64,000 nt of DNA from an uncultured Chloroflexia bacterium (GTDB taxonomy: Bacteria > Chloroflexota > Limnocylindria > Limnocylindrales > CSP1-4), in assembly GCA_963713975.1 (NCBI GenBank), contig OY970218.1:256001-320000 (forward strand), written 5' to 3'. Below the pieces are notes generated by a model. It ran no database searches, had not been told where the DNA came from, and saw nothing but the letters and a program-made list of their open reading frames with translations. Shown here piece after piece: positions 7,378 to 29,387 of the stretch; positions within the stretch are counted from its first letter, which is position 1; every line of letters begins with the position of its first letter. Both the position numbers and the translations under genes were made by a program.

Positions 7378-7747
7378 GCCGTCAGCCTCCGTTGCGGCTC
7401 GTCAGTCGGGCAGCTTCTGCCGTGGTGATCGTGCCACGGGGGATCATGCGCCACGCGGGGTGCGGTGCGTCGACCGTCACGCACGCCAGGTCGGTCACGA
7501 GCATCGTGGTCGAGCATCGGTGGGCCTCCTTGGGCAAGAGGTGCGGGCCCGGGCCGGGGGGAGGGCGCCGGGCCCGCGGTGGCGTTCAGGGACCAGTCTC
7601 GCCGCCGGACCCTTGCGATCCGGTTACGCGACGCCAGCCGCGCCGTGGTCCCGGGGCGTCAGCGCAGCGTCCACCGGTCCGCGTCGGCCTCCGGTCGGGG
7701 CCATCCGGCAGATGCGGGACGGCGCGCCGGGGTCGATCCTCGGCGAC

Positions 7748-10039
7748 GTGGGTACTGCGTCAGCGACTCCCGCAGCTACGGCGCCAACCGGCACGGTGGT
7801 TCACTCGCCGCTCAGGCGAGAGGGACCGGCGAAGCTGACCGGCGCCGCCCGCTTCACGGACGACATGGTCGTTTCCGGGGCGTGGTACGGCGTGACCGTG
7901 CGCTCCACGGAGCCCCACGCCAGGCTGCTGGGCATCGACCTCGATCCGGGCTTCGACTGGTCGGCGGTCGTGGTGGTCACGGCCGCGGACATCCCCGGCG
8001 ACAACGTGGTGACCCTGCTCGTCGACGACCAGCCCGCCCTCGTCGACGGTGAGATCCGGCACGTGGCGGAGCCCGTGGTCCTGGTCGCCGCCCCGGACCC
8101 GATCCTGGCCCGGGCTGCCCGCGACGCGGTCCACCTTCGCACCGAGCCCCTGCTCGCGGTCCTGGATCCATTGGCGGCAACCGAGTTCTGCAAGGTGTTC
8201 GAGATCGCCAGGGGAGACCTCGACGCCGGGCTCGCGAGTGCCGATCTCGTCCTGGAGGGCACGTACAGGACCGGCTACCAGGAACAGCTCTACATCGAGC
8301 CGCAGGCGATGATCGCGATCCCCCGCCCCGACGGCGGCCTGACCATCCACGGCTCGATGCAGTGCCCGTACTACGTGCACAAGGCGGTCGTGCGGGCGCT
8401 CGGCCTCGATCGCGATCGGGTCGCCATCGTGCAGGAGGAGACGGGAGGCGGCTTCGGCGGCAAGGAGGAGTACCCGTCCATCCTGGCGATCCATGCCGCC
8501 CTGCTCGCCCGCAAGGCGGGGCGCCCCGTGCGCATGGTGTATGAGCGGCACGAGGACCTCGCCGCGACCACCAAGCGACATCCGTCGATCATCCGCCACC
8601 GGACCGGCGTGACCCGTGACGGCCGGCTGGTGGCCCAGGACATCGAGATCGTCCTCGACGCGGGCGCCTACGCAACCGTGTCACCGGTCGTCCTGTCCCG
8701 CGGCGGCATCCACTGCGCGGGACCGTATGCCTGCCCCAACACACGGATCCGCGCCCGCGCGGCCGTGACCAACACGCCGCCCAACGGCGCCTTCCGGGGG
8801 TTCGGCGCGCCACAGGCCGCGTTCGCCGTCGAGACGCACCTGGACCGCCTCGCGGCCGCAGCGGGCATCTCGCCGCTCGAGATCCGGCGGCGCAATGCCT
8901 ACCGGCTCGGTGACGCCACGGCCACGGGCCAGGTCCTGCGCGAGAGCGTGGGGGCACTGGAGACGCTCGAGGCGGCGGCGGAGGCCTCCGGGTTCGAACG
9001 CGTCCGACGCGACCACGATGCGCGGCGCGAGGCGCGGCGCGAGGCGCGGTCCCGGCGAGGTGACGGGAACGCCGGGGCGCGCCTGGACGATCGGTCGGCC
9101 TCGGGGATCGGGATCGCGCTTGGCTGGCATGGCGCCGGGTTCACCGGCTCCGGGGAGGCGAGGCTCGCGAGCACCGCCTCGGTCGAGGTCGACGGCGGCG
9201 GGCAGATCCGGGCCTTCTCCGCGAACACGGAGATGGGCCAGGGATCGCGAACGGTGCTCGCCCAGGTGGTTGCCGAGGCGCTGGGCGTGGACCCCGACGA
9301 GGTCGACATCGCCCCCCAGGACACCGCGCTCGTCGCGGACAGCGGCCCGACCGTGGCGTCACGTACGACGATGGTGGTCGGCGCGTTGCTGGCGACCGCA
9401 TCCACGCACCTGCGTTCAGACGTGGAGGCCGTGACCGGCCGTCCGTTCGCGGCATCCTACCGCTCGTTCGCCCGTGAGCACGGTCCCCTGCGCGCCACGG
9501 AGCGGTTCCACGGCTTCCCGGGGATCGAGTGGGACGACGAGGCCTACCGGGGTGACGCCTACCCTGCCTACAGTTGGGCGTGCGCGGTGGCGGCCGTGGA
9601 CGTGGACCTCGACACGGGCGAGGTGCGGGTCCGGTCGGTCGTCCAGGCCGCCGACGCCGGCCGTATCGTCAACCGGGTCCTGGCCGAGGGCCAGGTCGAG
9701 GGCGGCACGCTGCAGGCCGTGGGCTACGCCACGCTCGAGGAGCTGCAGGCTGCGGACGGCCGCTACCGGAATGACCGGCTCTCGACCTACCTGATCCCGA
9801 CCGCGCTCGACGCGCCCCGGATCGAGACCCTCTTCGTGGGACAGCCGTTCGGTGCCGTCCCGCACGGGGCCAAGGGCCTGGGCGAGCTGCCGATGGACGT
9901 GCCCGCCCCCGCGGTGATCGCGGCGATCCACGATGCGACCGGGGCATGGATCCCGGACCTGCCGGCGACACCCGAGAAGATCCTCGCCGCGCTCTTGGCA
10001 CTGGATATCGAGGCGGGAGCGGAGGAGGCGGCCCGATGA
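7748..10039 (+). CDS. Xanthine dehydrogenase-family molybdopterin-binding subunit
   Basis: GGGFGGK, AFRGFG, EMGQG, SGPTVASR, GQVEGG, AKGLGE; start uncertain (7712 or 7748). Confidence 0.9.
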   Translation: MGTASATPAATAPTGTVVHSPLRREGPAKLTGAARFTDDMVVSGAWYGVTVRSTEPHARLLGIDLDPGFDWSAVVVVTAADIPGDNVVTLLVDDQPALVDGEIRHVAEPVVLVAAPDPILARAARDAVHLRTEPLLAVLDPLAATEFCKVFEIARGDLDAGLASADLVLEGTYRTGYQEQLYIEPQAMIAIPRPDGGLTIHGSMQCPYYVHKAVVRALGLDRDRVAIVQEETGGGFGGKEEYPSILAIHAALLARKAGRPVRMVYERHEDLAATTKRHPSIIRHRTGVTRDGRLVAQDIEIVLDAGAYATVSPVVLSRGGIHCAGPYACPNTRIRARAAVTNTPPNGAFRGFGAPQAAFAVETHLDRLAAAAGISPLEIRRRNAYRLGDATATGQVLRESVGALETLEAAAEASGFERVRRDHDARREARREARSRRGDGNAGARLDDRSASGIGIALGWHGAGFTGSGEARLASTASVEVDGGGQIRAFSANTEMGQGSRTVLAQVVAEALGVDPDEVDIAPQDTALVADSGPTVASRTTMVVGALLATASTHLRSDVEAVTGRPFAASYRSFAREHGPLRATERFHGFPGIEWDDEAYRGDAYPAYSWACAVAAVDVDLDTGEVRVRSVVQAADAGRIVNRVLAEGQVEGGTLQAVGYATLEELQAADGRYRNDRLSTYLIPTALDAPRIETLFVGQPFGAVPHGAKGLGELPMDVPAPAVIAAIHDATGAWIPDLPATPEKILAALLALDIEAGAEEAAR
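9020..9049 (+). repeat. In-frame 12-bp tandem repeat (2.5 copies, ARRE)
   Basis: GCGCGGCGCGAG x2 + GCGCGG inside the xdh large-subunit gene. Confidence 0.6.
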
Positions 10040-11505
10040 TCGAGTCGTCGCCCCTCGCCGCCCCTCCGATCCGGTTCCGGGTCAACGGCCGCGCGGTCGA
10101 GATCACGGACGAGCCAGGGGGCCGGCGCCTGCTCGACGTCCTGCGACTCGACCTGGGCCTTACGGGGGCGAAGGAGGGATGCGGCGAGGGCGAGTGCGGC
10201 GCCTGCTCCGTGCTGCTCGACGGCGCCGTCGTCAACAGCTGCCTGCTGCCGGTGGGCCAGGCCGACGGTCACGAGGTCGTCACCGTGGAGGGGCTGGCCG
10301 ACGGCGACCGCCTGTCGCCCCTCCAGCAGTCGTTCCTCGAGACGGGTGGGACGCAGTGCGGGATGTGCACCCCGGGGTTGCTCGTGGCCGCCCATGCGCT
10401 CCTCGAATTGGGACGACCCGCCGGCGAGCCCGACGTCCGCGAGGCGATCGCGGGCAACCTCTGCCGCTGCACTGGCTACACCAAGGTGGTCGAGGCGATC
10501 GAGGCGGCGGGGGCGGTCCACCGGCCGGCAAGGGTCGCGGGCGTCCAGGACGCACCGGTCGCGGGCGAGCTGCCGGCATCGCCGGCCGTTCCCGCAACGG
10601 TGCGACGCCACCACGGGTCCATCCGGTCCGATCCGCGCCTGGTCCGCCCCACCTCCCTGCCCGATGCGGTGGCGCGGCTCACCGCCGATCCGGCGCTCCG
10701 CCCGTTCGCCGGTGGGACGGACCTGATGGTCGAGCTGGCCCACGGATCGGCATCGCCGGGACGCCCGCTGCTGGACCTGTGGGAGCTCGACGAGCTGCGC
10801 GGGATCGAGGTCATCCACGATGAGCTGGCCCTGGGCGCATTGACCACCTGGACGGAGCTCCTCGACTCCACCGTCGCGCGCCACGCGCTGCCGGTGCTCG
10901 GCGAGGCGGCCGCGACGGTCGGTGCCGTCCAGGTCCGGAACCGGGGCACCATCGGCGGCAACTGCGTCACCGCCTCCCCCGCGGGCGATCTCCTGCCGGT
11001 GCTGCTTGCCACGGACGCGAGCCTTGAGGTGGCGGGGCCAGGCGGGACCCGGACGATCCGGGCGGATGCCTTCTGGACGGGCTACCGCACGACCGCCCTC
11101 GCCCCCGGGGAGCTGCTGGTGGCCGTGCGGGTCCCGCTGGTCCCCGGCCGAAGGGTGCGCTACCGGAAGGTCGGCACGCGTCGCGCGCTGGCGATCGCCA
11201 AGGTATCGATCGCCCTCGCCTGGCAGGACGGGGCGACGGCGGCAGGAACCGGCGGCACCGGCCGCGGACGCTGGCGGGGCGTCCGGGTCGCTCTGGGTTC
11301 AGTCGCGCCCACGCCCATTCGCGTGCTCCGGACCGAGGCGGTGCTGGAAGGGCGGCTGCCGGATCTCGCGATCGCGAACGAGGCCGCCGCCACGGTCCGG
11401 GCCGAGATCACGCCGATCGACGACATCCGCTCGACCGCCGACTACCGCCGCGAGGTCACGGGCCGGATCCTGCGCCGCATCGTGCTCGACGGCGCCCAGG
11501 GCTGA
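10036..11505 (+). CDS. Fused 2x[2Fe-2S] + FAD-binding subunit of a xanthine dehydrogenase-family enzyme
   Basis: GCGEGECGAC, QCGMC, NLCRCTGY, then AGGTDL, RNRGTIGGN, DDIRSTADYR; GGAGGAGG RBS; overlaps upstream stop. Confidence 0.9.
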   Translation: MIESSPLAAPPIRFRVNGRAVEITDEPGGRRLLDVLRLDLGLTGAKEGCGEGECGACSVLLDGAVVNSCLLPVGQADGHEVVTVEGLADGDRLSPLQQSFLETGGTQCGMCTPGLLVAAHALLELGRPAGEPDVREAIAGNLCRCTGYTKVVEAIEAAGAVHRPARVAGVQDAPVAGELPASPAVPATVRRHHGSIRSDPRLVRPTSLPDAVARLTADPALRPFAGGTDLMVELAHGSASPGRPLLDLWELDELRGIEVIHDELALGALTTWTELLDSTVARHALPVLGEAAATVGAVQVRNRGTIGGNCVTASPAGDLLPVLLATDASLEVAGPGGTRTIRADAFWTGYRTTALAPGELLVAVRVPLVPGRRVRYRKVGTRRALAIAKVSIALAWQDGATAAGTGGTGRGRWRGVRVALGSVAPTPIRVLRTEAVLEGRLPDLAIANEAAATVRAEITPIDDIRSTADYRREVTGRILRRIVLDGAQG

Positions 11506-11542
11506 CCGGCCGGCAACGCGACCGCGAGCCGGCGGACATGGT

Positions 11543-12049
11543 TCAGATCGCGGGCGCGTCCAGCCCCAGCGTCGCCGCCAGCTCCTGTACCGCTGCCCGC
11601 TCCGCATCGTTGACCAGGACGCCGCCGCTGCCGAGGAACCCCTGGTCCTCCATGCCCGCCTGCGCCACCGCCACCGCGATCCCGAGCAGCCACGACCTGT
11701 ACGCCGAGGTCTCATCGGGGGTAGCGCCGGCCTCTACCGCCGCCATGGCCGATCGCACCGTCGCGACCGCCCTGTCGCGCGCATCGGGGGCCGTCACGAT
11801 CCTGGCGTAGTCGGGGAACGCGCCACCGGACGCCGCGTGGTCCTGGAGGGTCACGATGATCGACGAGAGCAGCGGATGGGCGACCTGGCCGCGGGCGCTG
11901 TCGAGCACGTAGGCGGCCATCGCGAAGCCCTCGCTGGCCGTCTCCTCCTTGCGACCAGGGCTCGCCGTCGAGATCAGCACGGCCGCCGCCTCCAGGCCCT
12001 GAAGGATCAGCCGCCGGTCATCGGGTTCGAAGTCGCCGAGCAGGGTCAT
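11543..12049 (-). CDS. Hypothetical helical protein
   Basis: 168-aa ORF with GGAGG RBS; VAQAGMEDQGFLGSGGVLVNDAE C-terminal motif. Confidence 0.7.
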   Translation of the reverse strand: MTLLGDFEPDDRRLILQGLEAAAVLISTASPGRKEETASEGFAMAAYVLDSARGQVAHPLLSSIIVTLQDHAASGGAFPDYARIVTAPDARDRAVATVRSAMAAVEAGATPDETSAYRSWLLGIAVAVAQAGMEDQGFLGSGGVLVNDAERAAVQELAATLGLDAPAI

Positions 12050-12149
12050 GTCGCATCCTCCGTGCACCGGAATGGTTGACGACGGTGCACGATGTCGACC
12101 TTACCGCCATTCGACCCCGCGAGGCGTGGAAATGTCCGTGGTGAGCCGA

Positions 12150-13298
12150 TCAGGCCGTCGATGGGGACCCGGGCGCCCACAGGATCGCGGCGGGCCGACA
12201 GCGGGTGAGGCACAGGCCACAGCGCTCGCATCGCTCCTGGTCCAGCTCGGCCTTGCCGTTCACGACGTGGATGGCGTCGTAGACGCACGAGCCCTCGCAC
12301 AGCGCGCAGCCGTTGCACAGGTCGAGATCCACCATCGGCGGGCCGGGAACCTGGGCGGCAACGGGCTCGCGCAGGGCCATGCCCCGCACGTCGTCGAGAC
12401 CGGCGTATCCGTGGCCGGCGAGCCAGGCGGCCGCCTCTCCCGCGATCTTCCCGAACACGCCGCGACCGCGGAGGATTGCCGCGGTGCACACCTGCACGGC
12501 CGACGCGCCCGCCATCGCCATCTCGATCACGTCCGTGCCGCGGCTGATCCCGCCACAGCCGATGACGGGCAGGTCCACGGCGCGGGCCACATCGAACACG
12601 GAGCGCACGGCAAGGGGCTTGAGGGCCGGACCGGAGAGCCAGCCAGAGCCGTCGCCGCCACCCAGGCGCGGCCGGCCGCTCTCGATGTCGACGGCCAGGC
12701 AGGGGCCAAACGAGTTGATGGCGACGATCGCGTCCGCACCGGCGCGTGCCGCCTGCTCGGCAGCCCGTGACATCTGGCGTCCGAGCGGGCTGAGCTTGAC
12801 CCACACGGGCACGTCCACGGCGTCCTTGGCCGCCCGGATCGCGTCGACCATCGGGCCCGCGTCCTCGCCGATGTAGTGCGTCGAGAGCTCCAGGGCATCC
12901 GCGAACGGCCGGACGCGGGGCGCGAGCCACGCGATGTCCGCGGCGGAATAGCCCAGGCTCACGATCAGCGGCAGGTCCGGCGTCCTCGCCTGCGGCAGCT
13001 CGTACTCCAGCCACTGCTCCGGCGGGAGCTCGGACCACAGCTCGGCGTTGAGGAACCCATGAGCGATCTCGGCCATGTTAGGCGTGGGGACGACGGCCGC
13101 GGAGCGCGAGATGGTCTTGCTGACCAGGCCCCCGGCGCCACCCGCGGCGCAGGCCAGCATGGCGGCCCCGTCACGCACCGGCGGCCCCGCCGCCGTGAGG
13201 ACCGGGTTGCGGAACCGGATGCCACAGACCTCGACGGAGGCGTCGACGGGCGGTGCCGTCGCGGCGGCAGCCGAGGCGGGCGTTGCGCGCCGGGTCAC
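12150..13298 (-). CDS. Dihydroorotate/dihydropyrimidine dehydrogenase (PreA)-like FMN enzyme with C-terminal 2x[4Fe-4S] domain
   Basis: NPVLTAAGP, SKTIS, VKLSP, AINS, LSGPALKP, GCGGI; CNGCALCEGSC and CERCGLCLTRC; GTG start overlaps the ssnA stop. Confidence 0.85.
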   Translation of the reverse strand: MTRRATPASAAAATAPPVDASVEVCGIRFRNPVLTAAGPPVRDGAAMLACAAGGAGGLVSKTISRSAAVVPTPNMAEIAHGFLNAELWSELPPEQWLEYELPQARTPDLPLIVSLGYSAADIAWLAPRVRPFADALELSTHYIGEDAGPMVDAIRAAKDAVDVPVWVKLSPLGRQMSRAAEQAARAGADAIVAINSFGPCLAVDIESGRPRLGGGDGSGWLSGPALKPLAVRSVFDVARAVDLPVIGCGGISRGTDVIEMAMAGASAVQVCTAAILRGRGVFGKIAGEAAAWLAGHGYAGLDDVRGMALREPVAAQVPGPPMVDLDLCNGCALCEGSCVYDAIHVVNGKAELDQERCERCGLCLTRCRPAAILWAPGSPSTA

Positions 13299-14671
13299 CG
13301 AAGCGGCGCCGTGCGCGGATCGAACGGGTGCTCGCCGATCGTGGCGAGGCGGCCCCACAAGCGTGTCGCCTGGGCACGAGCGGCGTCGAGGAGCCAGTCC
13401 TCGCCTACGAACCGGAGGCGGTGGCCAAGGACGGCGACCTCGCCTGCAACGACCACGTCGCGCACGTTGCGCGCCGAGAGGCCGAACACCCAGTGGCCGG
13501 GGAAGGTGTCCGCATCGGCCGGCGTGGGGACCGCGTGATCCAGGACGACGAGGTCCGCCGGCGCGCCCGCCTCGATCCGTCCGAGCAGGGGCTCGCCGAA
13601 GGCACGGCCCGCGACCCGTGCCGACTCCGCCAGGCGCGCCAGCACCCAGCGCGGATCGGGCGCCACCCCCTCCTCGCGCGCCGCGAGCCAGGCGGTCCGG
13701 GACTCCTCGAACATGTCCGCGCCGATGCCGTCCGTGCCGAGGGCGACCCGGGACCCCGGGAGTGCACGGGACCCCAGGAGCGCCGGTCGCCCCACGGCGT
13801 TGTTCATGTTGGACCGGATGTTGTGCACCACGGTCGCCCCGGCTTCGCGCACGGCCTCGGCCTCCCGCTCGTCGAGGTGCACCCCGTGGGCGAGCAGCGA
13901 CAGCTCGTCCAGGGCACCTGCCCGGGCGAGTCGTTCGATGACGGGGATCCCGAAGCGGGCCCGGCAGTCCGCCTGGTCCACGGCGTCCTCGGCAACGTGC
14001 ACGTGGAGGCCGGTCCCCGTGTGACCGGCGGCCTCGACGCAGGCAGCCAGGGTCGCGTCCGAGAGCGTGAACGAGGCGTGCGCCCCGACCATCGAGCGGG
14101 CGAGCGGCAGCGCCCCACCCGCCGCATGCTCGGCGAAGCGGCGGTTCTCGCGCAGGCCTGCCGCGGAGCACTCGGGTCCGTCCCGATCCGACACCTCGTA
14201 CGCGAGGATGCTGCGGATCCCGGTGGCCGCGAGCGACTCCGCGATGATGTCGAGCGAGCCGGCGATGGCATGCGGGGAGGCGTGATGGTCGACCACGGTG
14301 GTCGTGCCGGCCAGCAGGGCCTCCATGCCGCCGACGAGCGCGGAGGCGCGGATCGATCCCTCGTCCAGCCCGCGGTCCAGCCGCCACCAGACGCGTCGCA
14401 GGATGTCGACGAAGTCCCGGGGAGGCTCCAGGCCGTAGGGCATCCCCCGGGCCAGCGCCGCGTACAGGTGGGTGTGGGCGCAGACGTTGCCCGGGATCAC
14501 GACGCAGCCCCGTGCGTCGATGCGGTTCACGCCGGGATCATCGTCCCCGGACGCGTCCGCCACGGGGCTCACCTCGAGGACGCGGCCGTCGCCCACGAGG
14601 ACGTCGGCGACCTCGACCCGCACCGGGTCCAGGGACGTGACCACCGTGCCGCCGGTTACGAGCAGGTTCAT
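13295..14671 (-). CDS. ssnA: SsnA-like amidohydrolase
   Basis: PGNVCAHTHLY, ILRRVWWRLD, DHHASP, YEVSDRDG, GAHASFT, HVAE, RSNMNNAVG. Confidence 0.85.
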   Translation of the reverse strand: MNLLVTGGTVVTSLDPVRVEVADVLVGDGRVLEVSPVADASGDDDPGVNRIDARGCVVIPGNVCAHTHLYAALARGMPYGLEPPRDFVDILRRVWWRLDRGLDEGSIRASALVGGMEALLAGTTTVVDHHASPHAIAGSLDIIAESLAATGIRSILAYEVSDRDGPECSAAGLRENRRFAEHAAGGALPLARSMVGAHASFTLSDATLAACVEAAGHTGTGLHVHVAEDAVDQADCRARFGIPVIERLARAGALDELSLLAHGVHLDEREAEAVREAGATVVHNIRSNMNNAVGRPALLGSRALPGSRVALGTDGIGADMFEESRTAWLAAREEGVAPDPRWVLARLAESARVAGRAFGEPLLGRIEAGAPADLVVLDHAVPTPADADTFPGHWVFGLSARNVRDVVVAGEVAVLGHRLRFVGEDWLLDAARAQATRLWGRLATIGEHPFDPRTAPLR

Positions 14672-17307
14672 CGCCGGGTCCCTCCGCCGGCGGGCTCACG
14701 ATCGAGTCGTGGCAGCAGCGCGTGGGCTGCGGCCGAGTCGCGCATCGGGAGCCTGGTCCTGCGGACGCCGTCGAAGGCGTGCAGCGCCGAGGCTACGGCC
14801 GCCGCCGTCGGGACGAGCACCGCCTCGCCCATTCCCTTGGCGCCGCGGGGGCCCTCGGGCTGGGGGACCTCCACCAGGATCGTCTCGACCGGCGGCATCG
14901 TGGCGGCCGGGATGATCCCGAGCGACTTGAGGGTGTCGTTGACGGGCATGCCATCCTCCACGATGAACTCCTCCGTCAGGGCCATGCCGAGGCCCATGTG
15001 GACCCCGCCCTCGACCTGCCCCTTGAGCAGTGCGGGGTTGAGCGCGCGCCCCACGTCCTGGGCCGCGATCACGCGTTCGATCCGTCCGTGGTCATCCAGG
15101 ACCACCACCTGGGTCGCCCAGCCGTAGGCGAAGTGGGTGACCGGCTCGTCGACATCGGGCCCGAGCGGTGTGGTCCAGTCGACGACGAACTCGCCCGGGA
15201 ACTCCCTGCCGGCGAGATCCTCCATGAGCCCATCGCCGACGGCCGCGGCAAGCACGGCGCAGGCATCGAGGACGGCCCGGCCGCCCAGCATCGTGGCGCG
15301 CGACGCCGTGGTCTCCCCGGTGTCGAGCTCGTGGCCCGTGTCGACGACGACCCGGATCCGCTCCGGTGCGATGCCCAGCTCCTCGGCGGCGAGCTGGCGG
15401 AACACGGTGTGGCACCCCTGGCCCATCTCGGTCCAGGAGTGGAACAGCGTCACGGTCCCGTCGGCCTCCGGCCGCAGGACGGCCCGTCCACGCTCGATGA
15501 GGCCGTTGCCGACGCCCACGTTCTTGGCGCCGCAGGCGATCCCCGCGCACCTCGCCGCCCGGTAGGCATCGCGCACGGCAAGCAGCGTGGCCCGGATCCC
15601 GACGCCGGGCCCCAGCCGCTGGCCCGTCCCGAACCGGTCGCCCACGTCGAGCGCGTTTCGCCAGCGGATCTCCCAGCCGTCGATGCCCGCCTGCTCGGCC
15701 AGCATGTCCATCACGCCCTCGAGCGCGAAAGCAGCCTGGTTGGCCCCAAAGCCCCGCATCGCGCCCGACGGCGGGTTGTTGGTGTAGACGGCTCGCGCCT
15801 CGACGTCCACGTTGGGGACGCGATACGGCCCGCAGGCGTGGCCGGCCGCCCGCTCCAGCACCTTGCCGCCCACGCTGGCATACGCCCCGTTGTCCCCGAC
15901 GATGCGCGCCCGGATCGCGACGAGCCGGCCGTCGGCATCGCAGCCCGCCGTGTAGTCCAGCCACATCGGGTGGCGCTTGACGTGGAACCGGAGGCTCTCG
16001 ACGCGGCTCAGCCGCAGGAGGACCGGCCGGCCGGTACTGACGGCGAGGAGCGCGGCCTGCCCCTGGACGCTCAGATCCTCCTTGCCGCCGAAGGCTCCGC
16101 CCGTCGACACCTGGGTGACCATGACCTCGGCCGGCTCGAGGGCGAGGAACGACGCGACCTGGCGCCGGTCCTCCCAGGCACCCTGGCCCTCCGAGTAGAC
16201 GTGGACGCGCGGCAGGGTGACCCGCACGCCATCCGGTCCGACGGCCCCGCGCGGGACCGCGAGGCTCGCCTCAGGCTCCAGGAACGCATGCTCGATCGCC
16301 TGCGTGCGGAAGCTGGCGCTGGCCACGTGGGTGGCCGAGGCGAGGGCCGCCACCGCGTCGCCACGCCGGATGGCGGAGCTCGAGAGCACGTTGCCGCCCT
16401 CGTGGACGGCCGGGGCTCCCTCCTCGAGGGCCTTGAACGGATCGGTCACGGGCGGCAGCGGTTCCAGCGCCACCTCGATCAGCGCCGCGGCCCGGATCGC
16501 GATCGCGCGCGTCTCCGCGGCCACGGCCGCGAGGATGTCGCCCACGTAGCGTGTCGTCTCGCCCTCGGCCACCAGCAGCGGCCAGTCGGGGACGATGAGC
16601 CCCTGCTCCCGCCGGCCCGGGACGTCCGCAGCGGTCACGACGGCGACAACACCGGGCAGCGCGGCTGCGCGGGTGGCGTCGATGCGGTGCACGACCGCCC
16701 GCGGCGCACCGGCGAAGCGGAGCGCGCCGTGGAGCATGCCGGGCGCCACGAGGTCCGCGACGAACGGCTTCTCCCCCAGCGCCAGGGCATGGCCCTCGTG
16801 GCGAGCTCCGAGACCACGGGTCGCGCCCGGATCCCTGGCCAGCAGCGCCCCACCGCGCCGCGTCCGGGCCGCCAGCTCGATCGCGTCGACGATGGCCACA
16901 TACCCCGTGCAGCGGCACAGGTTCCCGGCCAGGGCGTGCGCGATCACCTCGCGGGCGGGTTCGGGGTTGCGCCGCAGCAGGGCCTCGGCCTTCATCACCA
17001 CGCCCGGCGAGCAGAAGCCGCACTGCGACGCCCCGGTCGCCACGAACGCGTCCGCCCACCCGTCCCGGACATGGGCCGACAGGCCCTCGAGCGTCTCCAC
17101 GGCACGGCCCCGCACCCGGTCCACCGGCTGGGCACAGGACACGACCGCGTGACCGTCCACGATCACGGTGCACGCCCCACAGGAGCCCTCTGGCGAGCAG
17201 CCGTCCTTCATCGACCGGAGGCCGCACGTATCCCGCAGGACGTCCAGCAGCGATGCCCCGGGCGCCGCATCCACAGCGACGGCCCGGCCGTTGAGCGTGA
17301 AGTCCAT
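14668..17307 (-). CDS. Molybdenum hydroxylase with N-terminal [2Fe-2S] domains (selenium-dependent xanthine dehydrogenase/XdhD-like)
   Basis: KDGCSPEGSCGAC, QCGFC, CRCTGY, EHAFLEPE, GGAFGGKED, AMRGFG, TTASR, GQVEGG, AKGMGE. Confidence 0.88.
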   Translation of the reverse strand: MDFTLNGRAVAVDAAPGASLLDVLRDTCGLRSMKDGCSPEGSCGACTVIVDGHAVVSCAQPVDRVRGRAVETLEGLSAHVRDGWADAFVATGASQCGFCSPGVVMKAEALLRRNPEPAREVIAHALAGNLCRCTGYVAIVDAIELAARTRRGGALLARDPGATRGLGARHEGHALALGEKPFVADLVAPGMLHGALRFAGAPRAVVHRIDATRAAALPGVVAVVTAADVPGRREQGLIVPDWPLLVAEGETTRYVGDILAAVAAETRAIAIRAAALIEVALEPLPPVTDPFKALEEGAPAVHEGGNVLSSSAIRRGDAVAALASATHVASASFRTQAIEHAFLEPEASLAVPRGAVGPDGVRVTLPRVHVYSEGQGAWEDRRQVASFLALEPAEVMVTQVSTGGAFGGKEDLSVQGQAALLAVSTGRPVLLRLSRVESLRFHVKRHPMWLDYTAGCDADGRLVAIRARIVGDNGAYASVGGKVLERAAGHACGPYRVPNVDVEARAVYTNNPPSGAMRGFGANQAAFALEGVMDMLAEQAGIDGWEIRWRNALDVGDRFGTGQRLGPGVGIRATLLAVRDAYRAARCAGIACGAKNVGVGNGLIERGRAVLRPEADGTVTLFHSWTEMGQGCHTVFRQLAAEELGIAPERIRVVVDTGHELDTGETTASRATMLGGRAVLDACAVLAAAVGDGLMEDLAGREFPGEFVVDWTTPLGPDVDEPVTHFAYGWATQVVVLDDHGRIERVIAAQDVGRALNPALLKGQVEGGVHMGLGMALTEEFIVEDGMPVNDTLKSLGIIPAATMPPVETILVEVPQPEGPRGAKGMGEAVLVPTAAAVASALHAFDGVRRTRLPMRDSAAAHALLPRLDREPAGGGTRR

Positions 17308-17504
17308 GGGACCCCTCGCGGCCGGTCCCCGCTGGACCGTCTGGCCCTAGCCGGGAGCGCTCCGATGTCGAATCGTAGGGACGACTCGAGGGACCCCGCG
17401 CGTGCCAAGTGTCCCGACTCCGCACGAGGCCTGTCCCGAGCCGTCGGGCGACCGACCCACCGTCACGGCTGAAGCCGGGCCGTCGCCAACAGCAGGAGGT
17501 CGTG

Positions 17505-19001
17505 ATGCGCCGACTGGGACTTGAACGGGACGTCGTGGACCCGGTCGTCCGGGACCGTGCTGCCGATCGCTGCCGGTCCCTGGGCGTGGTCCTGCCGACC
17601 TTCGCCCAGCTGGCCGATCCCGACCTCGTCCCCAGCGCCGTGGCCGAGCGGCTTGCCGCCGTCGATCCTGATGCGCCCGATCCGCTCAACCTGTACCGCG
17701 TCCACTGGTTCAATGACGGCACGCGGGCCGCCCGGACACACGTCCCCGACCACCTGGTCCTGCCCGAGGCGCTGACCGGCGTCGTCTCGCCGATCGTGAT
17801 CGCGCTGGGCGACCGGTTCCCGATGATCCGGTCGCACAAGGTCATCGCGGCCTACGGCTGCCTCGCGCCGCGGATCGTGACCGGCCAGTTCGATCCCGCG
17901 ACGGAGCGGGCGGTCTGGCCGTCCACCGGCAACTACTGCCGGGGCGGCGCGGCGATCTCCCGGATCATGGGCTGCCGCGGCGTGGCGGTCCTCCCCGAGG
18001 GAATGAGCCGCGAGCGGTTCGAGTGGCTCGAGCGGTGGGTTGCCGACCCGTCGGACATCATCCGGACGCCGGGCACGGAGAGCAACGTCAAGGAGATCTA
18101 CGACCGCTGCGCGGAGCTCGACCGCGAGCCGGACACGGTGATCTTCAACCAGTTCAGCGAGTTCGGGAACCACGTCGCCCACTACGCCCTCACTGGCCGT
18201 GCCCTGGCGCACGTGTTCGAGGCGGTCCGGGCCCGGCAGCCGAGCGTCCGCGCCGCCGCGTTCGTGTCGGCGACCGGGTCCGCCGGGACCATCGGGGCCG
18301 GCGACTACCTCAAGGAACGGCTCGGCTCGCGGACGGTGGCCGTCGAGGCACTGGAGTGCCCGACCATGCTCGCCAACGGCTTCGGCGAGCACAACATCCA
18401 GGGGATCGGCGACAAGCACATCCCGCTCATCCACAACGTGATGGCGACCGACCTCGTGGCGGCCGTCTCTGACCGGGCCACCGATGCGCTCCTAGTGCTG
18501 TTCAACACGGCCGTCGGTCGCGAGTACCTCGTGCGGCGACGCGGCGTGCCCGCCGAGATCGTGAGCGCCCTCGGGTCGCTCGGCGTGTCCTCGATCTGCA
18601 ACGTGCTGGCCGCGATCAAGGTGGCCCGCCACCAGCACCTCGGACCCGACGACGTGATCCTGACGGTCGCCACGGACGGCGCGGAGATGTACGCGACCGA
18701 GCTGGAGCGGATCGCCGCCCGCGACTTCCCGGGCGGGTTCGACGAGGTGGCGGCCGGGGAGACCTTCGGGGCCTACCTCAACGCCGTCGCGGAGGACCAC
18801 GTCCTGGAGGCGACCCGCGCCGATCGCGAGCGGATCTTCAACCTCGGCTACTACACCTGGGTCGAACAGCAGGGGGTGCCGATCGACGAGTTCGAGGCCC
18901 GCCGCCAACCGGACTTCTGGACGACGATGCGCGGGATCGTCGACCGCTGGGACCAACTGATCGACGAGTTCAATGCGCACGTCGCCGGTGGACCGGCCTA
19001 G
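17505..19001 (+). CDS. PLP-dependent fold-type II enzyme (cysteine synthase/beta-family like)
   Basis: SHKV PLP lysine, [22 protein letters not shown]; AGGAGG RBS. Confidence 0.85.
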
Positions 19002-19017
19002 TCGAGGAGGTGGCCGC

Positions 19018-20481
19018 ATGAGCGCTCCATCGCCGCGCCGGAGAGAGGTCCCACCGCCACCCGCGGTCGAGACGGGGCTCGCGTGTGCCGGGTGTGGCGC
19101 GCTGGGACCCGCCCACCACCCGTTCACGCCACGCTGCCCGAACCGCCGCGCCGGCGACGACATCGACCACGTGATGGCGCGCGGCATCGACCTCAACCGC
19201 CTCGACCCGCCCGCCGACCCGGACCCGAATCCGTTCGTCCGCTACCGGGCCCTGTTCCACGCCTACCACGTTGCCCGGGCGGCGGGCTGGGGTGACAGCC
19301 GCTACGTGGGCCTGGTGCGCGAGCTCGACGATGCCGTGGCACGCGTGGACGGCAAGGGGTTCCGGGTCACGCCCCTGGTGCGGGCGCCGGGGATCGCGCA
19401 TGCCGCCGGCCTCGGCGCGCGGGGGACGGTCTGGGTCAAGGATGAGACGGGCAACGTCGCGGGATCCCACAAGGCGCGCCACCTGTTCGGGGTCATGCTG
19501 GAGCTGCGCGTGGCCGAGGCGATCGCGGGCAGGGAGCCCATTGAGCCCGCGGCACCGCTGGCCATCGCGAGCTGCGGCAACGCCGCCCTGGCCGCCACCT
19601 TGGTCGCCCGGGCGGCCCAGCGCGAGCTCCAGGTATTCGTCCCCGCCAGTGCCGACGTCGCCGTGGTCGACAGGCTGCGCGATCTCGGTGCAGCTGTCGT
19701 CGTCTGCCCCCGCCGTCCTGGCGAGACGGGCGATCCGTCGTACCACCGGATGCAGGAGGCCCTGGCCGAGGGCGCCATCCCGTTCACCTGCCAGGGCCCC
19801 GACAACGGCCTCGCGATCGAGGGCGGGGCGACCGTCGCCTGGGAGATCGTGGACGCCATGCGCGCCGCCGGCGCGTCCCTCGACCGCATCGTCGTCCAGG
19901 TTGGCGGCGGGGCACTCGCATCGGGGATCATGCTCGGGTTCGACGACGCTGCGGTCATCGGCGCGCTCGGGGTCGTCCCGCGCCTCGACACGGTCCAGGC
20001 GCGCGGTGGCTGGCCGCTCGTCCGCGCCTACCGGCAGGTGCTCGCCGACCTCGGCACCGCCGCCGGGGTGCCGCTCCGCCCGGACGTCGTGCACGACGCC
20101 ATCCGTCACGCGGCCAACCACCGGTCGCGCTACATGTGGCCCTGGGAGACGGAGCCCGTGAGCGTCGCCCACGGCATCCTGGACGACGAGACCTACGACT
20201 GGCTCGCGGTCGTGCGGGCGATGCTGGCCACCGGGGGTCGCGCGATCGTCGTCGACGAGGCCGACCTCGTCGAGGCCAACGAGATCGCCCGGGGGGCCAC
20301 CGGCATCGACGCGGACGAGACCGGCACCGCGGGGGTCGCGGGCCTGCTGGCCCTTGCCCGCGGCGGGTTTGTACGACCCGGCGAATCGGTCGCCGTGGTC
20401 CTCAGCGGCGCCCGCCGTCCCGCCCCATCGGCAGCAGCGTCCTCCACTCAGCCCAGGTCATCGCAACGGAGCACGCCATGA
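19018..20481 (+). CDS. Threonine-synthase-like PLP enzyme with N-terminal Cys ribbon
   Basis: CAGC...RCP, VKDETGNVAGSHKAR, ASCGNA, QVGGGAL; GAGGAG RBS. Confidence 0.85.
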   Translation: MSAPSPRRREVPPPPAVETGLACAGCGALGPAHHPFTPRCPNRRAGDDIDHVMARGIDLNRLDPPADPDPNPFVRYRALFHAYHVARAAGWGDSRYVGLVRELDDAVARVDGKGFRVTPLVRAPGIAHAAGLGARGTVWVKDETGNVAGSHKARHLFGVMLELRVAEAIAGREPIEPAAPLAIASCGNAALAATLVARAAQRELQVFVPASADVAVVDRLRDLGAAVVVCPRRPGETGDPSYHRMQEALAEGAIPFTCQGPDNGLAIEGGATVAWEIVDAMRAAGASLDRIVVQVGGGALASGIMLGFDDAAVIGALGVVPRLDTVQARGGWPLVRAYRQVLADLGTAAGVPLRPDVVHDAIRHAANHRSRYMWPWETEPVSVAHGILDDETYDWLAVVRAMLATGGRAIVVDEADLVEANEIARGATGIDADETGTAGVAGLLALARGGFVRPGESVAVVLSGARRPAPSAAASSTQPRSSQRSTP

Positions 20482-21431
20482 GAAGCTTCCTCGGCCGCGA
20501 CATCCTCTCGCTCAAGGACTTCAGCCGCGACGAGTACTTCCGGGTCTTCCAGGTCGCCGACGACCTCCGTCCCTTCGCCCGGGACCGCCGGAACACCGAC
20601 CTGCTCAAGGGCAAGACCCTGCTGACGGCCTTCTACCAGCCGAGCACCCGCACGCGCCTCTCCCACGAGGCCGCGATGCACCGGCTGGGCGGCGCCGTGC
20701 TGGGGTTCAGCGACGCCAAGATGACCCGCGCCGGGGACTTCTACCAGGAGTCGATCAAGGACACGTTCCACATGCTGGAGTACTACGCGGACGTGATCGC
20801 GATCCGCCACTTCCGGCAGGGAGCACCGCACGAGGCGGCCAAGTGGGCGTCCGTCCCGGTCATCAACTGCGGCGACGGATGGGGCGAGCACCCGACCCAG
20901 GTCCTCACCGACCTGTACACGATCCTCCACGAGAAGGGCACCCTCGATGGGCTGACCTACCTCCTGGTCGGCGACATGCGGATGCGGACGATGCACTCGA
21001 TCCTGTACGCGCTCTCGCAGTTCGACGCCCGGGCCATCGTGGTCGGCCCTCCGGACATGAGCCTCCTGCCGGAGTTCAAGGAGGAGATCGACGCGCTGAA
21101 CGTGGACTACGTGGAGGCGGGCGACGTCCGGGACGTGATCGGCGAGGCGGACATCATCTACATGGAGCCGGTGGTCCAGGCGGACTACACGGCGTCGCGC
21201 GTGGAGCGCAGCGGCGATACGGGCCTCACGCCACCGGAGTACGTGGTCACGCGCCAGCTGCTGGCCGACAAGGCACGGCGCTCGTCGATCATCCTCCACT
21301 CGCTGCCGCGGATGGACGAGCTGCCCGAGGACGTGGACGCGACCCGCCACCAGCGGTACTGGTCGGAGGCCTTCAACGGCGTCGCGCTCAAGATGGGCCT
21401 GCTCGCGCTGATCCTCGGCGCCGCCGAGTAG
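20478..21431 (+). CDS. Aspartate-carbamoyltransferase-like protein with altered substrate pocket
   Basis: FYQPSTRT, ESIKDT, HPTQ, HSLPR; lacks the RxQ aspartate-binding motif (YMEPVVQ). Confidence 0.85.
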   Translation: MRSFLGRDILSLKDFSRDEYFRVFQVADDLRPFARDRRNTDLLKGKTLLTAFYQPSTRTRLSHEAAMHRLGGAVLGFSDAKMTRAGDFYQESIKDTFHMLEYYADVIAIRHFRQGAPHEAAKWASVPVINCGDGWGEHPTQVLTDLYTILHEKGTLDGLTYLLVGDMRMRTMHSILYALSQFDARAIVVGPPDMSLLPEFKEEIDALNVDYVEAGDVRDVIGEADIIYMEPVVQADYTASRVERSGDTGLTPPEYVVTRQLLADKARRSSIILHSLPRMDELPEDVDATRHQRYWSEAFNGVALKMGLLALILGAAE

Positions 21432-21440
21432 GGGCGCGTC

Positions 21441-22418
21441 ATGCAGACCGACCTCCGTGGCCGCGACCTCATCAGCCTCCAGGAGTGGACGAAGGAGGAG
21501 ATCGACACCGTCCTGGAGGTGGCGCTCCAGCTCAAGCGGGAGCGTGCGCTGGGCATCGCCCACCCGCTGCTGCGGGACCGGGTCCTCGCGATGCTGTTCT
21601 TCTTCTCGTCCACCAGGACCCGGGCCTCGTTCGAGGCAGGCATGGCCCAGCTCGGCGGCCACGCCCAGTTCATCGAGAGCCGTACCACCCAGATCGCCCA
21701 TGGCGACACGGCCACCGAGATCGGCGAGATCCTGGGCCGCTACAACGACGGCATCGCGATCCGCAACGTGGACTGGGGCATCGGCAACGGCTACATCCGT
21801 GACGTAGCGGCGGCCAGCCGGGTCCCCGTCCTCAACATGCAGTGCGATCTCTACCACCCGCACCAGTCCCTCGCCGACCTGCTCACGATCATCGAGAAGA
21901 AGGGCGACCCGAAGGGGCGCACGATCGACATCAGCTGGGCGTACGCGGCCAGCTACCAGAAGCCGATCAGCGTCCCGGTGGACCTCTCCCTGCTGACGAC
22001 GCGCTACGGGATGCACGTCCGGCTTGTCCACCCGCCGGAGTTCCGGCTGCCGCAGGACCTGGTGGACCAGGCCGCCGAGAACGCGCGCCGGAGCGGAGGG
22101 TCGTTCCAGCTGATGGACGACTTCGAGACCGGCATGCGTGGCGCGGACATCGTCTACGCCAAGAGCTGGGGGGCGCTCCTTTCGGCGACGTCCGAGGAGG
22201 AGGGCGCCGCAACGGCCAGGCGGTACACGGACTGGATCACAGACGAGCGGCGGATCGCGCTGGCCGCCGAGGACGCGATCTACATGCACCCGCTCCCCGC
22301 GGACCGCAACGTGGAGGTGGCCGACGCCGTGATCGACGGTCCGCACTCGGTCGTCTACGACGAGGCCGAGAACCGGCTGCACGTGCAGAAGGCGGTGATG
22401 GCGCTCACGATGCGCTAG
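21441..22418 (+). CDS. YgeW/AOTCase-like (knotted) carbamoyltransferase
   Basis: SSTRT, HPHQ, SWAYAASYQKPISVP (resembles the YgeW WAYSPSYGKPLSVP loop), YAKSW, MHPLP, AENR. Confidence 0.85.
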   Translation: MQTDLRGRDLISLQEWTKEEIDTVLEVALQLKRERALGIAHPLLRDRVLAMLFFFSSTRTRASFEAGMAQLGGHAQFIESRTTQIAHGDTATEIGEILGRYNDGIAIRNVDWGIGNGYIRDVAAASRVPVLNMQCDLYHPHQSLADLLTIIEKKGDPKGRTIDISWAYAASYQKPISVPVDLSLLTTRYGMHVRLVHPPEFRLPQDLVDQAAENARRSGGSFQLMDDFETGMRGADIVYAKSWGALLSATSEEEGAATARRYTDWITDERRIALAAEDAIYMHPLPADRNVEVADAVIDGPHSVVYDEAENRLHVQKAVMALTMR

Positions 22419-22550
22419 GCCGTCCCGTCCCTCCGTGGGGCACGCCAGCCAGCCGTCCTCGCTCATGGTGGTGCGCGGCGCATGTTGCCGCCATAGGTCA
22501 GACTTGACGCCGCCACGATCGGGCGCGGCCCCGAAGACCAGGGAGCATCG

Positions 22551-23921: not shown

Positions 23922-23953
23922 GGGTGGCGCAGGCCGGCGGGTCGCCCGCAACG

Positions 23954-24625: not shown

Positions 24626-24635
24626 CCCGGGCTCC

Positions 24636-26181: not shown

Positions 26182-26187
26182 GCCGGT

Positions 26188-29381: not shown

Positions 29382-29387
29382 CCGGAC

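Follow-up and report, generated by a model that had tools for sequence, protein, structure and literature searches.

We analyzed a 64,000-nucleotide stretch of DNA from an uncultured Chloroflexia bacterium (the window, C1:256001-320000; the genome comprises one contig of 3.62 Mb, and marker genes put its completeness at 92%). At positions 7748-22418 it carries a cluster of ten genes encoding a two-subunit molybdenum hydroxylase (XDH-L and XDH-S), a second, fused hydroxylase (XDH2), an SsnA-like amidohydrolase, a UacX-like reductase with flavin mononucleotide (FMN) and Fe-S motifs, two pyridoxal phosphate (PLP)-dependent enzymes of fold type II (PLP1 and PLP2), two carbamoyltransferases, and an orphan open reading frame (ORF). 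Judged from the sequences, this cluster probably encodes the reductive uric acid (2,8-dioxopurine) pathway in full, in an environmental ("soil-type") variant. It would represent a real and conserved variant of a known pathway, with two transferases and a PLP pair and without YgeX, YgeY, and YgfK, whereas the exchange of YgfK for UacX is already known. An initial annotation of the window had proposed a rewired, anaerobic form of the reductive urate pathway without HyuA; the comparison of conserved loci speaks for the rewired pathway, but an anaerobic host is not supported and a HyuA homologue exists elsewhere in the genome.

According to the accessible text of PMC12507026 and 10.1101/2025.04.24.650524, the E. 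coli cluster for this pathway ("yanthine"/2,8-dioxopurine) consists of xdhD-ygfM, ygfK, ssnA, hyuA, ygeW, yqeA, ygeY, and ygeX. The window resembles it in having a molybdenum hydroxylase next to an SsnA-like gene, a ring reductase, a YgeW-like transferase, a carbamate kinase in the genome, and terminal PLP fold-type-II chemistry. It differs from it in that this genome lacks YgfK, YgeY, YgeX, YgfM, YqeB, YqeC, and UacT, that HyuA and the kinase are unlinked, and that it has, in addition, a transferase derived from aspartate carbamoyltransferase (ATCase) and a pair of unrelated PLP enzymes. The best scores in the whole genome were 81.4 bits for YgeY (cut-off, 321.5), 29.2 bits for YgeX (cut-off, 274), and 334.6 bits for YgfK (cut-off, 835.3), of which only the GltD-like middle (positions 440-849 of 1012) found a match. 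A tblastn search with the E. coli K-12 proteins agreed, and none of the three canonical genes is thus present over its cut-off. YgfM is likewise not in the genome. The statement of the initial annotation that YgeY, HyuA, and YgfK are missing is correct for YgeY and YgfK throughout the genome and for HyuA within the cluster, but a HyuA homologue exists at an unlinked position.

Conservation of the variant in related genomes

With PLP1 as the query, a scan of one genome per species gave at least 600 stretches, from which 80 loci of up to 21 kb were retained. In tblastn searches with the window proteins (E ≤ 1e-10, coverage of at least 50%), PLP2 was detected in 48 of these loci, XDH2 in 30, SsnA in 29, the 325-aa transferase in 22, the ATCase-like transferase in 17, and the UacX-like reductase in 5. 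All 80 were reached via PLP1, and they stand for related genomes and not for independent samples. Orthologues of XDH2 (at least 50% identity) adjoin SsnA in 22 of the 80 loci; these 22 were called core loci on the basis of XDH2 (at least 50% identity) and SsnA (at least 40% identity) only. The initial annotation depends on a co-occurrence of the genes in other genomes, and the core loci show them recurring together in other phyla.

PLP2 is present in 21 of the 22 core loci and is split into two ORFs in the remaining one (L029). The ATCase-like gene was found in 14, a short YgeW-like gene in 12, a long YgeW gene in 5, and a carbamate kinase gene, directly after the transferases, in 12. A YgeY-like M20 gene occurs in six core loci and a HyuA-like gene in four; the reductases are UacX in five, a luciferase-like (F420-type) protein in seven, and a YgfK-like protein in four. 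No core locus has a YgeX-like gene. Of the 80 loci, none has both the ATCase-like gene, present in 16, and the YgeY-like M20 gene, present in 6. The former is accompanied by a YgeW-like gene in 14 of its 16 loci, the latter by a long YgeW gene in five of six. This alternation supports, by comparison and not by biochemistry, the earlier suggestion that a second transferase replaces YgeY.

The most informative single locus is L068, from a betaproteobacterial metagenome-assembled genome (MAG). Its XDH2, SsnA, PLP1, and PLP2 are 56%, 46%, 59%, and 52% identical to those of the window and are followed by YgeW, YgeY, and YqeA with 81%, 82%, and 75% identity to the E. coli proteins. The locus also has a YgfK-like gene (36%) and part of a HyuA-like gene, but no YgeX. 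Since this locus combines YgeW, YgeY, and YqeA with PLP1-PLP2 in the absence of YgeX, the PLP pair would take the slot of YgeX; the ATCase-like enzyme would take that of YgeY. Together with the count of zero for YgeX-like genes in the core loci, L068 bears out, again on comparative and not biochemical grounds, the proposal that PLP enzymes stand in for YgeX.

The gene order varies among the lineages. In L073 and L060 it is PLP1-PLP2, two carbamoyltransferases, carbamate kinase, XDH2, SsnA, and the luciferase-like gene, all on one strand, and in L036 it is PLP1-PLP2-XDH2-SsnA, the luciferase-like gene, and the two carbamoyltransferases. That the genes stay together while their order changes argues for selection on the neighborhood. 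A sample of 151 genomes of the window's phylum (SsnA-like at E ≤ 1e-60, PLP1 at E ≤ 1e-100) contained 39 genomes with an SsnA-like protein, a tally which takes in one unpublished genome (G161) that enters no other result, and 16 with PLP1; 15 of these 16 have both. In the 16 genomes with an ATCase-like locus, neither the YgeX family nor the YgeY family reached its cut-off in any; these are MAGs of unstated completeness, in which a single absence is weak evidence, but the window's own genome shows the same pattern.

The two carbamoyltransferases

The ATCase-like protein passes the ATCase model TIGR00670 by 7 bits (244.4 bits against a cut-off of 236.95), and its best sequence match in the PDB is the ATCase of P. 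abyssi (1ml4, 235.8 bits). We aligned 40 carbamoyltransferases and placed 41 in a tree, the set being drawn from the related loci, three other paralogues of the same genome, and PyrB, ArgI, and YgeW of E. coli. In the tree, the ATCase-like clade is separate from and sister to PyrB (96/93) within an ATCase group supported at 100/100. All 15 rows of the clade retain STRTR, R105, HPTQ, R167, and the HxLP motif. In the same 15 rows, however, TRVQKER of PyrB is replaced by ME-P-(V/I)-VQ-(A/P)-DY (EPVVQADY in the window) and the K84 loop by RAGDFYQE, and the same changes are seen against the P. abyssi enzyme. R229, Q231, and K84 are therefore all lost in 15 of 15 rows, whereas E. coli PyrB and the genome's own PyrB retain the canonical motifs. 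In E. coli ATCase, these three residues hold the carboxylates of aspartate, chiefly the beta one. Given these roles, their loss suggests that the ATCase-like enzyme, which has the fold and the carbamoyl phosphate site of PyrB, has a remodelled aspartate site suited to an N-carbamoyl-alpha-amino acid without a beta-carboxylate, such as 2-ureido-3-(ureido/amino)propionate. Neither a gene for a PyrI partner nor any other pyr gene adjoins it.

The second transferase, of 325 aa, is 34.6% identical to E. coli YgeW and about 70 aa shorter, and it scores below both YgeW cut-offs (178.6 vs 453 and 165.9 vs 500 bits). The two proteins have the motifs QIAHGD, SWAYAASYQKPISVP, and YAKSWG in common (consensus QIAHG(D/E), (S/T)WAYxxSYxKPxSVP, and Y(A/P)KSW), and the 325-aa enzyme has HPHQ and HPLP and lacks the YgeW insertion of about 19 aa. 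The tree places it with YgeW (support 100/97) and not among the ornithine carbamoyltransferases (OTCs). Since motifs and tree position are shared but the insertion is absent and the cut-offs are missed, "YgeW-like" is a fair label and "YgeW" is not. OTCs are marked by the motifs DxxxSMG and HCLP. Neither is found in the 325-aa enzyme, which reads YAKSWG and HPLP at these places and fails the OTC models (250.6 vs 306 and 239.2 vs 280.85 bits).

The possibility that the two proteins are ordinary products of pyrB and argF, as considered in the initial annotation, failed against the rest of the genome. A canonical PyrB (LRIQKER) is encoded at C1:2160227-2161423, and the gene after it is dihydroorotase-like. 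Near 3.602 Mb lies an ArgF that shows both DAWTSMG and HCLP, and a third, OTC-like gene lies with a carbamate kinase gene at 2.197-2.199 Mb. The two transferases are the best-conserved proteins of the cluster, with 91-94% identity to L026/L027, compared with 72-79% for PLP2.

Enzymes of the OTC type transfer the carbamoyl group to a terminal amine, and citrulline has albizziin as its lower homologue. On this analogy, the YgeW-like enzyme would act on the 3-ureido group and the ATCase-like enzyme on the 2-ureido group. This assignment fits the order of Liu et al., in which YgeW acts on the 3-ureido group (10.1101/2025.04.24.650524), better than that of Li et al. (PMC12507026), as far as the accessible parts of both papers go; a commentary (PMC12990295, accessible in part) counts the order of ureido cleavage among the open questions.

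PLP1 and PLP2

PLP1 scores 78.4 bits against the NCBIfam cysK model (cut-off, 350.95). Among 29 sequences from four phyla, 137 positions are invariant, including the Schiff-base lysine K112 and the carboxylate loop S140-T141-G142-N143. The structural model (pLDDT 90.1) has CysK, cystathionine beta-synthase (CBS), and beta-cyanoalanine synthase as its nearest PDB folds (TM on target 0.72-0.80). These three enzymes operate via an aminoacrylate intermediate. PLP1 is thus outside the CysK family by score, yet its modelled fold indicates that it may work like a CysK-type enzyme.

PLP2 scores at best 71.9 bits against a threonine synthase model (cut-off, 303). C23, C26, C40, H51, and K152 are invariant in 25 sequences, the lysine motif is GSHK(A/G)RH (GSHKARH in the window), and a GILDDETYDW block is also invariant. 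The N-terminal Cys3-His motif can be read as a zinc-ribbon-like site. For the PLP2 model (pLDDT 89.2), the nearest structures are threonine synthase, serine and aspartate racemases, and threonine deaminase. Sequence searches of the PDB with both proteins returned distant CysK and ThrC relatives only, the clusters of the ESM Atlas are named only "pyridoxal-phosphate dependent enzyme", and tblastn detected no similarity of either protein to E. coli YgeX.

The PLP1 family is large: all 8000 scored candidates had E ≤ 1e-10, and of the 120 matches listed, 118 had an identity of 72% or more, while two 665-aa forms (P0056 and P0057) had one of 60%. Its relatives carry database names of "cysteine synthase" or "pyridoxal-phosphate dependent enzyme" only. 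The PLP1 loci come from Chloroflexota (the nearest, at 82-84%), Actinomycetota, Acidobacteriota, and alpha-, beta-, and gammaproteobacteria, with 56-84% identity across phyla among the loci compared, and PLP2 follows PLP1 in 47-48 of the 80 loci. The 80 loci include no cultured organism with the whole cluster; their named isolates (Desertimonas flava, Actibacterium pelagium, and Xanthobacter sp.) have PLP1 alone or PLP1 and PLP2. A search for longer proteins containing PLP1 gave 12 of 897-1581 aa, of which 11 were examined. Six apparent fusions with PLP2 or other neighbors (P0127, P0128, P0130, P0131, P0133, and P0134) contain frameshifted stretches, which in the PLP1-PLP2 fusions (all but P0130) replace the conserved C terminus of PLP1, and were rejected as apparent assembly or gene-call artefacts of high-GC MAGs. 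P0125 (SsnA-like plus PLP1, six members) and P0129 (ThrC-like plus PLP1-like) may be read-through and were not used as evidence.

A group of proteobacterial loci (L059, L063, L082, L052, L074, and L078) has PLP1 without PLP2 in a different setting. They contain the F420 biosynthesis genes for CofC, CofD, F420 ligase, and a CofG/H-like radical-SAM fusion, together with a luciferase-like gene and genes for two CoA-transferase subunits and for LamB/YcsF with carboxyltransferase (oxoprolinase-like) subunits. Also encoded are a GntR regulator, an ABC importer of the branched-chain type, a PLP enzyme resembling YgeX, and, along with CoxG, an XDH-like enzyme; each family is present in three to five loci of this subset. 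This looks like a separate uncharacterised catabolic island.

PLP2 may be the functional counterpart of YgeX, and PLP1 may perform a further step. The accessible text of PMC12990295 mentions that an R (D) configuration of the pathway intermediates has been proposed, and one speculative division of labor, drawn from the structural models, would be between a racemase-fold enzyme and an L-specific CysK-fold lyase. It was also considered that the PLP pair might replace HyuA. This idea was dropped, as a HyuA-like gene lies within 8 of the 80 PLP1 loci and the D-hydantoinase family is over its cut-off in 15 of the 16 genomes with an ATCase-like locus.

Hydroxylases, amidohydrolase, and reductase

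XDH-L has the Pfam domains Ald_Xan_dh_C, MoCoBD_1, and MoCoBD_2, with pucD as its best NCBIfam model (495 bits against a cut-off of 784), and XDH-S has Fer2, Fer2_2, FAD_binding_5, and CO_deh_flav_C (TIGR02963, 300 bits against a cut-off of 467). They appear to form a conventional enzyme of the xanthine dehydrogenase type. An orthologue of XDH-L (75%) was found in 1 of the 80 loci, that of the nearest relative L026. XDH2 has no FAD part and passes TIGR03311 (905.7 bits; cut-off, 830.45). The NCBIfam name of this family, "selenium-dependent xanthine dehydrogenase", may mislead for XDH2, because SelD is present in the genome but YqeB and YqeC are absent.

The SsnA-like protein is the sole SsnA homologue of the genome and is 35.8% identical to E. 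coli SsnA. Its scores lie under the cut-offs of NF005540 (414.3 vs 444 bits) and TIGR03314 (402 vs 455.5), and the next family follows at 159. The reductase matches PF01180 with 115 bits and falls below the cut-offs of the NCBIfam models for 1B-type dihydroorotate dehydrogenase (179.5 bits) and PreA (148.3 bits). It has ferredoxin-type matches at residues 336-391 and no FAD/NAD domain, so that a ferredoxin-type electron donor is expected. This corresponds to the architecture of UacX (PF01180, two 4Fe-4S motifs, no FAD/NAD domain), a likeness which we draw from the architecture and not from the C. difficile sequence. UacX-like orthologues with 68-83% identity are present in five of the 80 loci. 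That a PreA-like enzyme takes the place of YgfK, as the initial annotation proposed, agrees with this architecture and with the absence of YgfK; the exchange itself had already been published as UacX (PMC12507026).

Proposed pathway

XDH-L/XDH-S would oxidize hypoxanthine or xanthine to urate, from which XDH2, without an FAD part and as a putative urate 6-dehydroxylase (2,8-dioxopurine dehydrogenase), would strip the 6-oxo group to give 2,8-dioxopurine. The UacX-like FMN/Fe-S enzyme would reduce the ring, the SsnA-like enzyme would open the reduced ring to ureidomethyl-hydantoin, and the unlinked hydantoinase (C1:2359742-2361106) would convert the hydantoin to 2,3-diureidopropionate. The short YgeW-like enzyme would then cleave the 3-ureido group with phosphate, as a catabolic OTC does with citrulline, and the ATCase-like enzyme would cleave the 2-ureido group by running ATCase chemistry backwards, its substrate being an N-carbamoyl-alpha-amino acid devoid of a beta-carboxylate. 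Two carbamoyl phosphates could yield ATP via carbamate kinase, which is unlinked here and adjacent in relatives. PLP1 and PLP2 would together do the work of YgeX, forming pyruvate and ammonia from 2,3-diaminopropionate; PLP2 might, for instance, carry out a racemase or D-specific reaction and PLP1 an aminoacrylate-forming beta-elimination. The extra ATP from the two transferases is an inference, and so are the roles given to the transferases and, most of all, to the PLP pair.

In C. difficile, UacX (a PydA homologue, PF01180) replaces YgfK and UacY is present, according to the accessible text of PMC12507026. The window is similar in that XDH2 lacks an FAD subunit and the reductase is of the FMN and Fe-S type without an FAD/NAD domain. 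In C. difficile, however, the 2-ureido group is hydrolyzed by UacY and HyuA, YgeY, and YgeX are retained, as far as the same text describes, whereas both ureido groups are proposed here to be cleaved with phosphate. The accessible text also describes an F420 enzyme in place of YgfK in some variants, names a putative F420 reductase for Chloroflexota SsnA clusters, and lists Chloroflexota and Actinomycetota among the SsnA-bearing phyla in a similarity network. The window belongs to the same lineage and cluster family as these F420-type clusters, and its relatives have a luciferase-like gene where the window has UacX. The neighborhoods in that part of the paper are colored by Pfam family only (PF00185 and PF00291). 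Its main text makes no mention of an ATCase-like second transferase, of PLP1-PLP2, or of a lack of YgeX or YgeY; the supplements may bear on this. A full-text literature search, which did not cover these supplements, found no paper on a variant with two transferases and a PLP pair.

The proposed reactions resemble the arginine deiminase pathway, where a catabolic OTC and carbamate kinase turn a ureido group by phosphorolysis into carbamoyl phosphate and then ATP. They differ from it in that the substrates would be ureido-propionates instead of citrulline and that two transferases of different ancestry would act in series. The ATCase-like enzyme, for its part, resembles PyrB in fold and carbamoyl phosphate site and differs in the loss of the site for the beta-carboxylate of aspartate (residues in E. 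coli numbering).

A broader picture may be drawn, which as a whole is tentative: soil and freshwater bacteria that respire O2 would run a pathway independent of the selenium cofactor, convert both ureido groups to carbamoyl phosphate with two ATP per urate, and use PLP1-PLP2 as a new two-enzyme replacement of diaminopropionate ammonia-lyase that also serves other N-heterocycle pathways.

Alternative interpretations

The same enzyme logic could act on another N-heterocycle, i.e., another oxopurine, a pteridine, or a pyrimidine-like compound, in place of urate and 2,8-dioxopurine. We consider this unlikely, although several observations point in its direction and weigh against urate. The SsnA-like and YgeW-like proteins fall under their curated cut-offs, the identity of XDH2 to E. 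coli XdhD is no higher than 26.5%, no match to the urate/xanthine permeases XanQ/UacT was found in the cluster or the genome, and PLP1 also occurs in the proteobacterial islands described above, which with their XDH-like, luciferase-like, CoA-transferase, and oxoprolinase-like genes clearly belong to a different pathway. However, XDH2 passes TIGR03311, and its identity to XdhD resembles the 25.63% given for the assigned C. difficile XdhD in the accessible text of PMC12507026. In L068, moreover, the XDH2-SsnA-PLP1-PLP2 block stands beside YgeW, YgeY, and YqeA with 75-82% identity to the urate enzymes of E. coli, and in the window a second, FAD-type xanthine dehydrogenase-like enzyme adjoins.

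Further points have to be set against the urate pathway. The cluster is without a hydantoinase, a carbamate kinase, a purine or urate transporter, and a regulator, and the sole HyuA homologue of the genome sits in an apparent pyrimidine-type cluster. The split between the ATCase-like and M20 genes partly tracks phylogeny, so that the loci are not independent: the former are found in Chloroflexota and Actinomycetota, the latter mostly in Betaproteobacteria and Acidobacteriota, with one locus (L064) from Actinomycetes. A collection based on PLP1 cannot show how many SsnA clusters lack PLP1; in the phylum sample, 24 of the 39 genomes with an SsnA-like protein lack it, and a genome of the same genus (G095) has neither. 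Nine mostly proteobacterial loci have PLP1 without PLP2 and with a YgeX-like gene (35-40% identity). Because PLP1 is also found outside urate clusters, for example beside a YgeX-like gene, it is probably not simply a diaminopropionate ammonia-lyase, and the need for two PLP enzymes lacks an explanation. Every substrate assignment rests on analogy.

It is also conceivable, but improbable in our view, that PLP1, PLP2, and the two transferases form a separate module that only adjoins the purine genes and breaks down or makes a ureido or diamino acid, for example albizziin or a derivative of diaminopropionate; if it makes one, carbamoyl phosphate would be consumed. The operon is divergent from that of XDH2, SsnA, and the UacX-like reductase, PLP1-PLP2 stands amid housekeeping genes without any purine gene in loci of Ilumatobacteraceae (a further point against the urate pathway), carbamoyltransferase reactions are reversible, and CysK-fold enzymes are typically synthases. 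However, the four genes stay by XDH2 and SsnA in varied orders in Chloroflexota, Actinomycetota, and unclassified MAGs, with all genes on one strand in L036, L060, and L073, and the ATP-yielding carbamate kinase follows the transferases directly in more than half of the core loci (12/22). The alternation of the ATCase-like gene with a YgeY-like hydrolase makes sense in the catabolic direction only. Finally, the narrow pass of TIGR00670 (7 bits) and the database name "cysteine synthase" could suggest ordinary PyrB, ArgF, CysK, and ThrC paralogues brought together by chance, which is hardly credible since PyrB and ArgF with intact motifs are encoded elsewhere, all 15 members of the clade have lost the aspartate-binding motif, the scores for CysK and ThrC come to about a quarter of the cut-offs, and the genes recur together across phyla.

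Unlinked genes and physiology of the host

For the urate pathway to operate, the hydantoinase and carbamate kinase steps would be supplied by unlinked genes. The HyuA homologue at C1:2359742-2361106 scores 576 bits against TIGR02033 (cut-off, 393), and its identity to the E. coli protein is 41.6%. Two other amidohydrolases in the window (46544-47920 and 58014-59417) resemble the Xaa-Pro dipeptidase model and not a hydantoinase. The sole carbamate kinase of the genome is encoded at C1:2198382-2199278, 1.9 Mb off and by an OTC-like gene (TIGR00746, 375.1 bits; cut-off, 358.25).

The surroundings of both genes were inspected. The stretch C1:2359742-2368000 combines the hydantoinase/dihydropyrimidinase gene with a luciferase-like (possibly F420-dependent) gene, a CN-hydrolase, and a class-III aminotransferase, which makes it a candidate for a reductive pyrimidine cluster whose reductase is non-canonical. 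In the stretch C1:2191600-2199336, the OTC-like gene and carbamate kinase lie directly behind two alpha subunits of Rieske ring-hydroxylating oxygenases and a 258-aa gene of no known kind. No arginine deiminase was seen in the stretch, and the pairing is unusual.

The initial annotation had called the degradation anaerobic. This is not supported for the host, as the genome encodes a haem-copper oxidase subunit I (557.9 bits) and Rieske oxygenases. Uricase (PF01014) was not found in the genome; other urate oxidases were not searched. With respect to selenium, YqeB reached at best 20.7 bits (cut-off, 220) and YqeC had no match in this genome, while SelD is present in a neighborhood (a DAO-type oxidoreductase and an MTTB-like gene) that is uninformative on selenium use. 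Neither YqeB nor YqeC was over its cut-off in any of the 16 related genomes, which makes them absent from 17 of 17 genomes. By contrast, YqeB, YqeC, and SelD are reported for every gut strain that has the cluster, and the Clostridium enzyme needs SelD (10.1101/2025.04.24.650524, accessible in part), and the pathway is described as confined to obligate or facultative anaerobes in the accessible text of PMC12990295. The variant thus appears to work without the YqeB/YqeC selenium-cofactor system, in a bacterium able to respire oxygen.

Gene organization and neighboring genes

The ten genes at 7748-22418 are overlapping or closely spaced and form three transcription units (Table 1). The window has a GC content of 72%, and ORFs were selected by third-position GC (GC3) and then checked against Pfam and NCBIfam. 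By these measures all ten ORFs are real, and the enzyme classes are those named in the initial annotation, which had also described the operons as translationally coupled. The latter is borne out by four ATGA or GTGA stop/start overlaps (at 10036, 13298, 14671, and 20478) and two short gaps. The ATG of XDH-S overlaps the stop codon of XDH-L as ATGA and is preceded by GGAGGAGG, the GTG of the reductase overlaps the stop codon of the SsnA-like gene, the ATG of the SsnA-like gene overlaps the stop codon of XDH2, and the start of the ATCase-like gene overlaps the stop codon of PLP2 as ATGA. PLP1 and PLP2 (19001/19018) are separated by 16 nt and the two transferase genes (21431/21441) by 9 nt. AGGAGG-type ribosome sites lie upstream of 17505 (PLP1) and 19018 (PLP2). 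The PLP1-PLP2-transferase unit on the plus strand is divergent from the XDH2-SsnA-UacX unit on the minus strand.

Table 1. Genes of the cluster in the window
Gene	Product	Position	Strand	Remarks
XDH-L	Molybdenum hydroxylase, large subunit	7748-10039	+	ORF opens at 7376; in-frame GTG at 7748 is the likely start
XDH-S	2Fe-2S and FAD subunit of the same enzyme as XDH-L	10036-11505	+	Pfam/NCBIfam
Orphan ORF	174 aa	11543-12067	-	Coding-like GC3 of 0.87; between the two hydroxylase operons
UacX-like	FMN/Fe-S reductase	12150-13298	-	DHO_dh/PreA-like domain and two C-terminal 4Fe-4S motifs
SsnA-like	Amidohydrolase	13295-14671	-	Best NCBIfam family
XDH2	Fused 2Fe-2S and molybdopterin hydroxylase	14668-17307	-	TIGR03311 over cut-off
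PLP1	498 aa, CysK/CBS-fold	17505-19001	+	PALP domain; distant from CysK
PLP2	487 aa, ThrC/dehydratase/racemase-fold	19018-20481	+	PALP domain; distant from ThrC
ATCase-like	Carbamoyltransferase	20478-21431	+	TIGR00670 over cut-off
YgeW-like	Short carbamoyltransferase, 325 aa	21441-22418	+	Best YgeW homologue in the genome

The orphan ORF has no Pfam or NCBIfam family and no tblastn match in any of the 80 loci, and it is not known to be part of the pathway. A consensus scan of positions 7000-24500 returned no promoters and no terminators, as expected at such a GC content. Among the sequencing runs, no RNA run was listed, and the DNA runs share at most 0.08 of words.

From the transferase genes on (positions 20000-30000), GC drops from about 0.73 to 0.67-0.70. 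A glutamate decarboxylase gene at 22551-23921 on the plus strand (TIGR01788, 682 bits) occupies the place of the carbamate kinase of relatives; it was considered as a member of the cluster and rejected, as none of the 80 related loci has a match. At 24636-25466 on the minus strand, a single protein combines a MerR-type HTH with a low-molecular-weight phosphatase (ArsC-like) domain; its gene lies beside those of a metallophosphoesterase and a TauE-type exporter, and an ArsP-type permease is encoded at 28072-29118. About 32-39 kb downstream of the cluster, the window encodes a small 4Fe-4S ferredoxin (54073-54411, plus strand) and a pyruvate:ferredoxin oxidoreductase (61327-63999, plus strand) that is cut by the window end. 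Speculatively, these two could link pyruvate, the end product, to donors of the ferredoxin type, which XDH2 and the UacX-like reductase are expected to use.

Implications

It was as recently as 2025 that the reductive urate pathway was elucidated, in gut bacteria. The variant described here would extend it to Chloroflexota, Actinomycetota, and other environmental phyla, to genomes without the YqeB/YqeC trait (17 of 17 checked), and to a host with a haem-copper oxidase in which no uricase was found. It would also offer two natural experiments: one on which ureido group each transferase attacks, given that an ATCase-derived enzyme alternates with the YgeY hydrolase, and one on the function of two large, strongly conserved, unnamed PLP families. 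The assignment of the transferases to the ureido groups, if true, bears on the disputed order of cleavage in the gut pathway. If both ureido groups give carbamoyl phosphate, the ATP gain per urate would be doubled, which would be of interest for the engineering of uricolytic strains.

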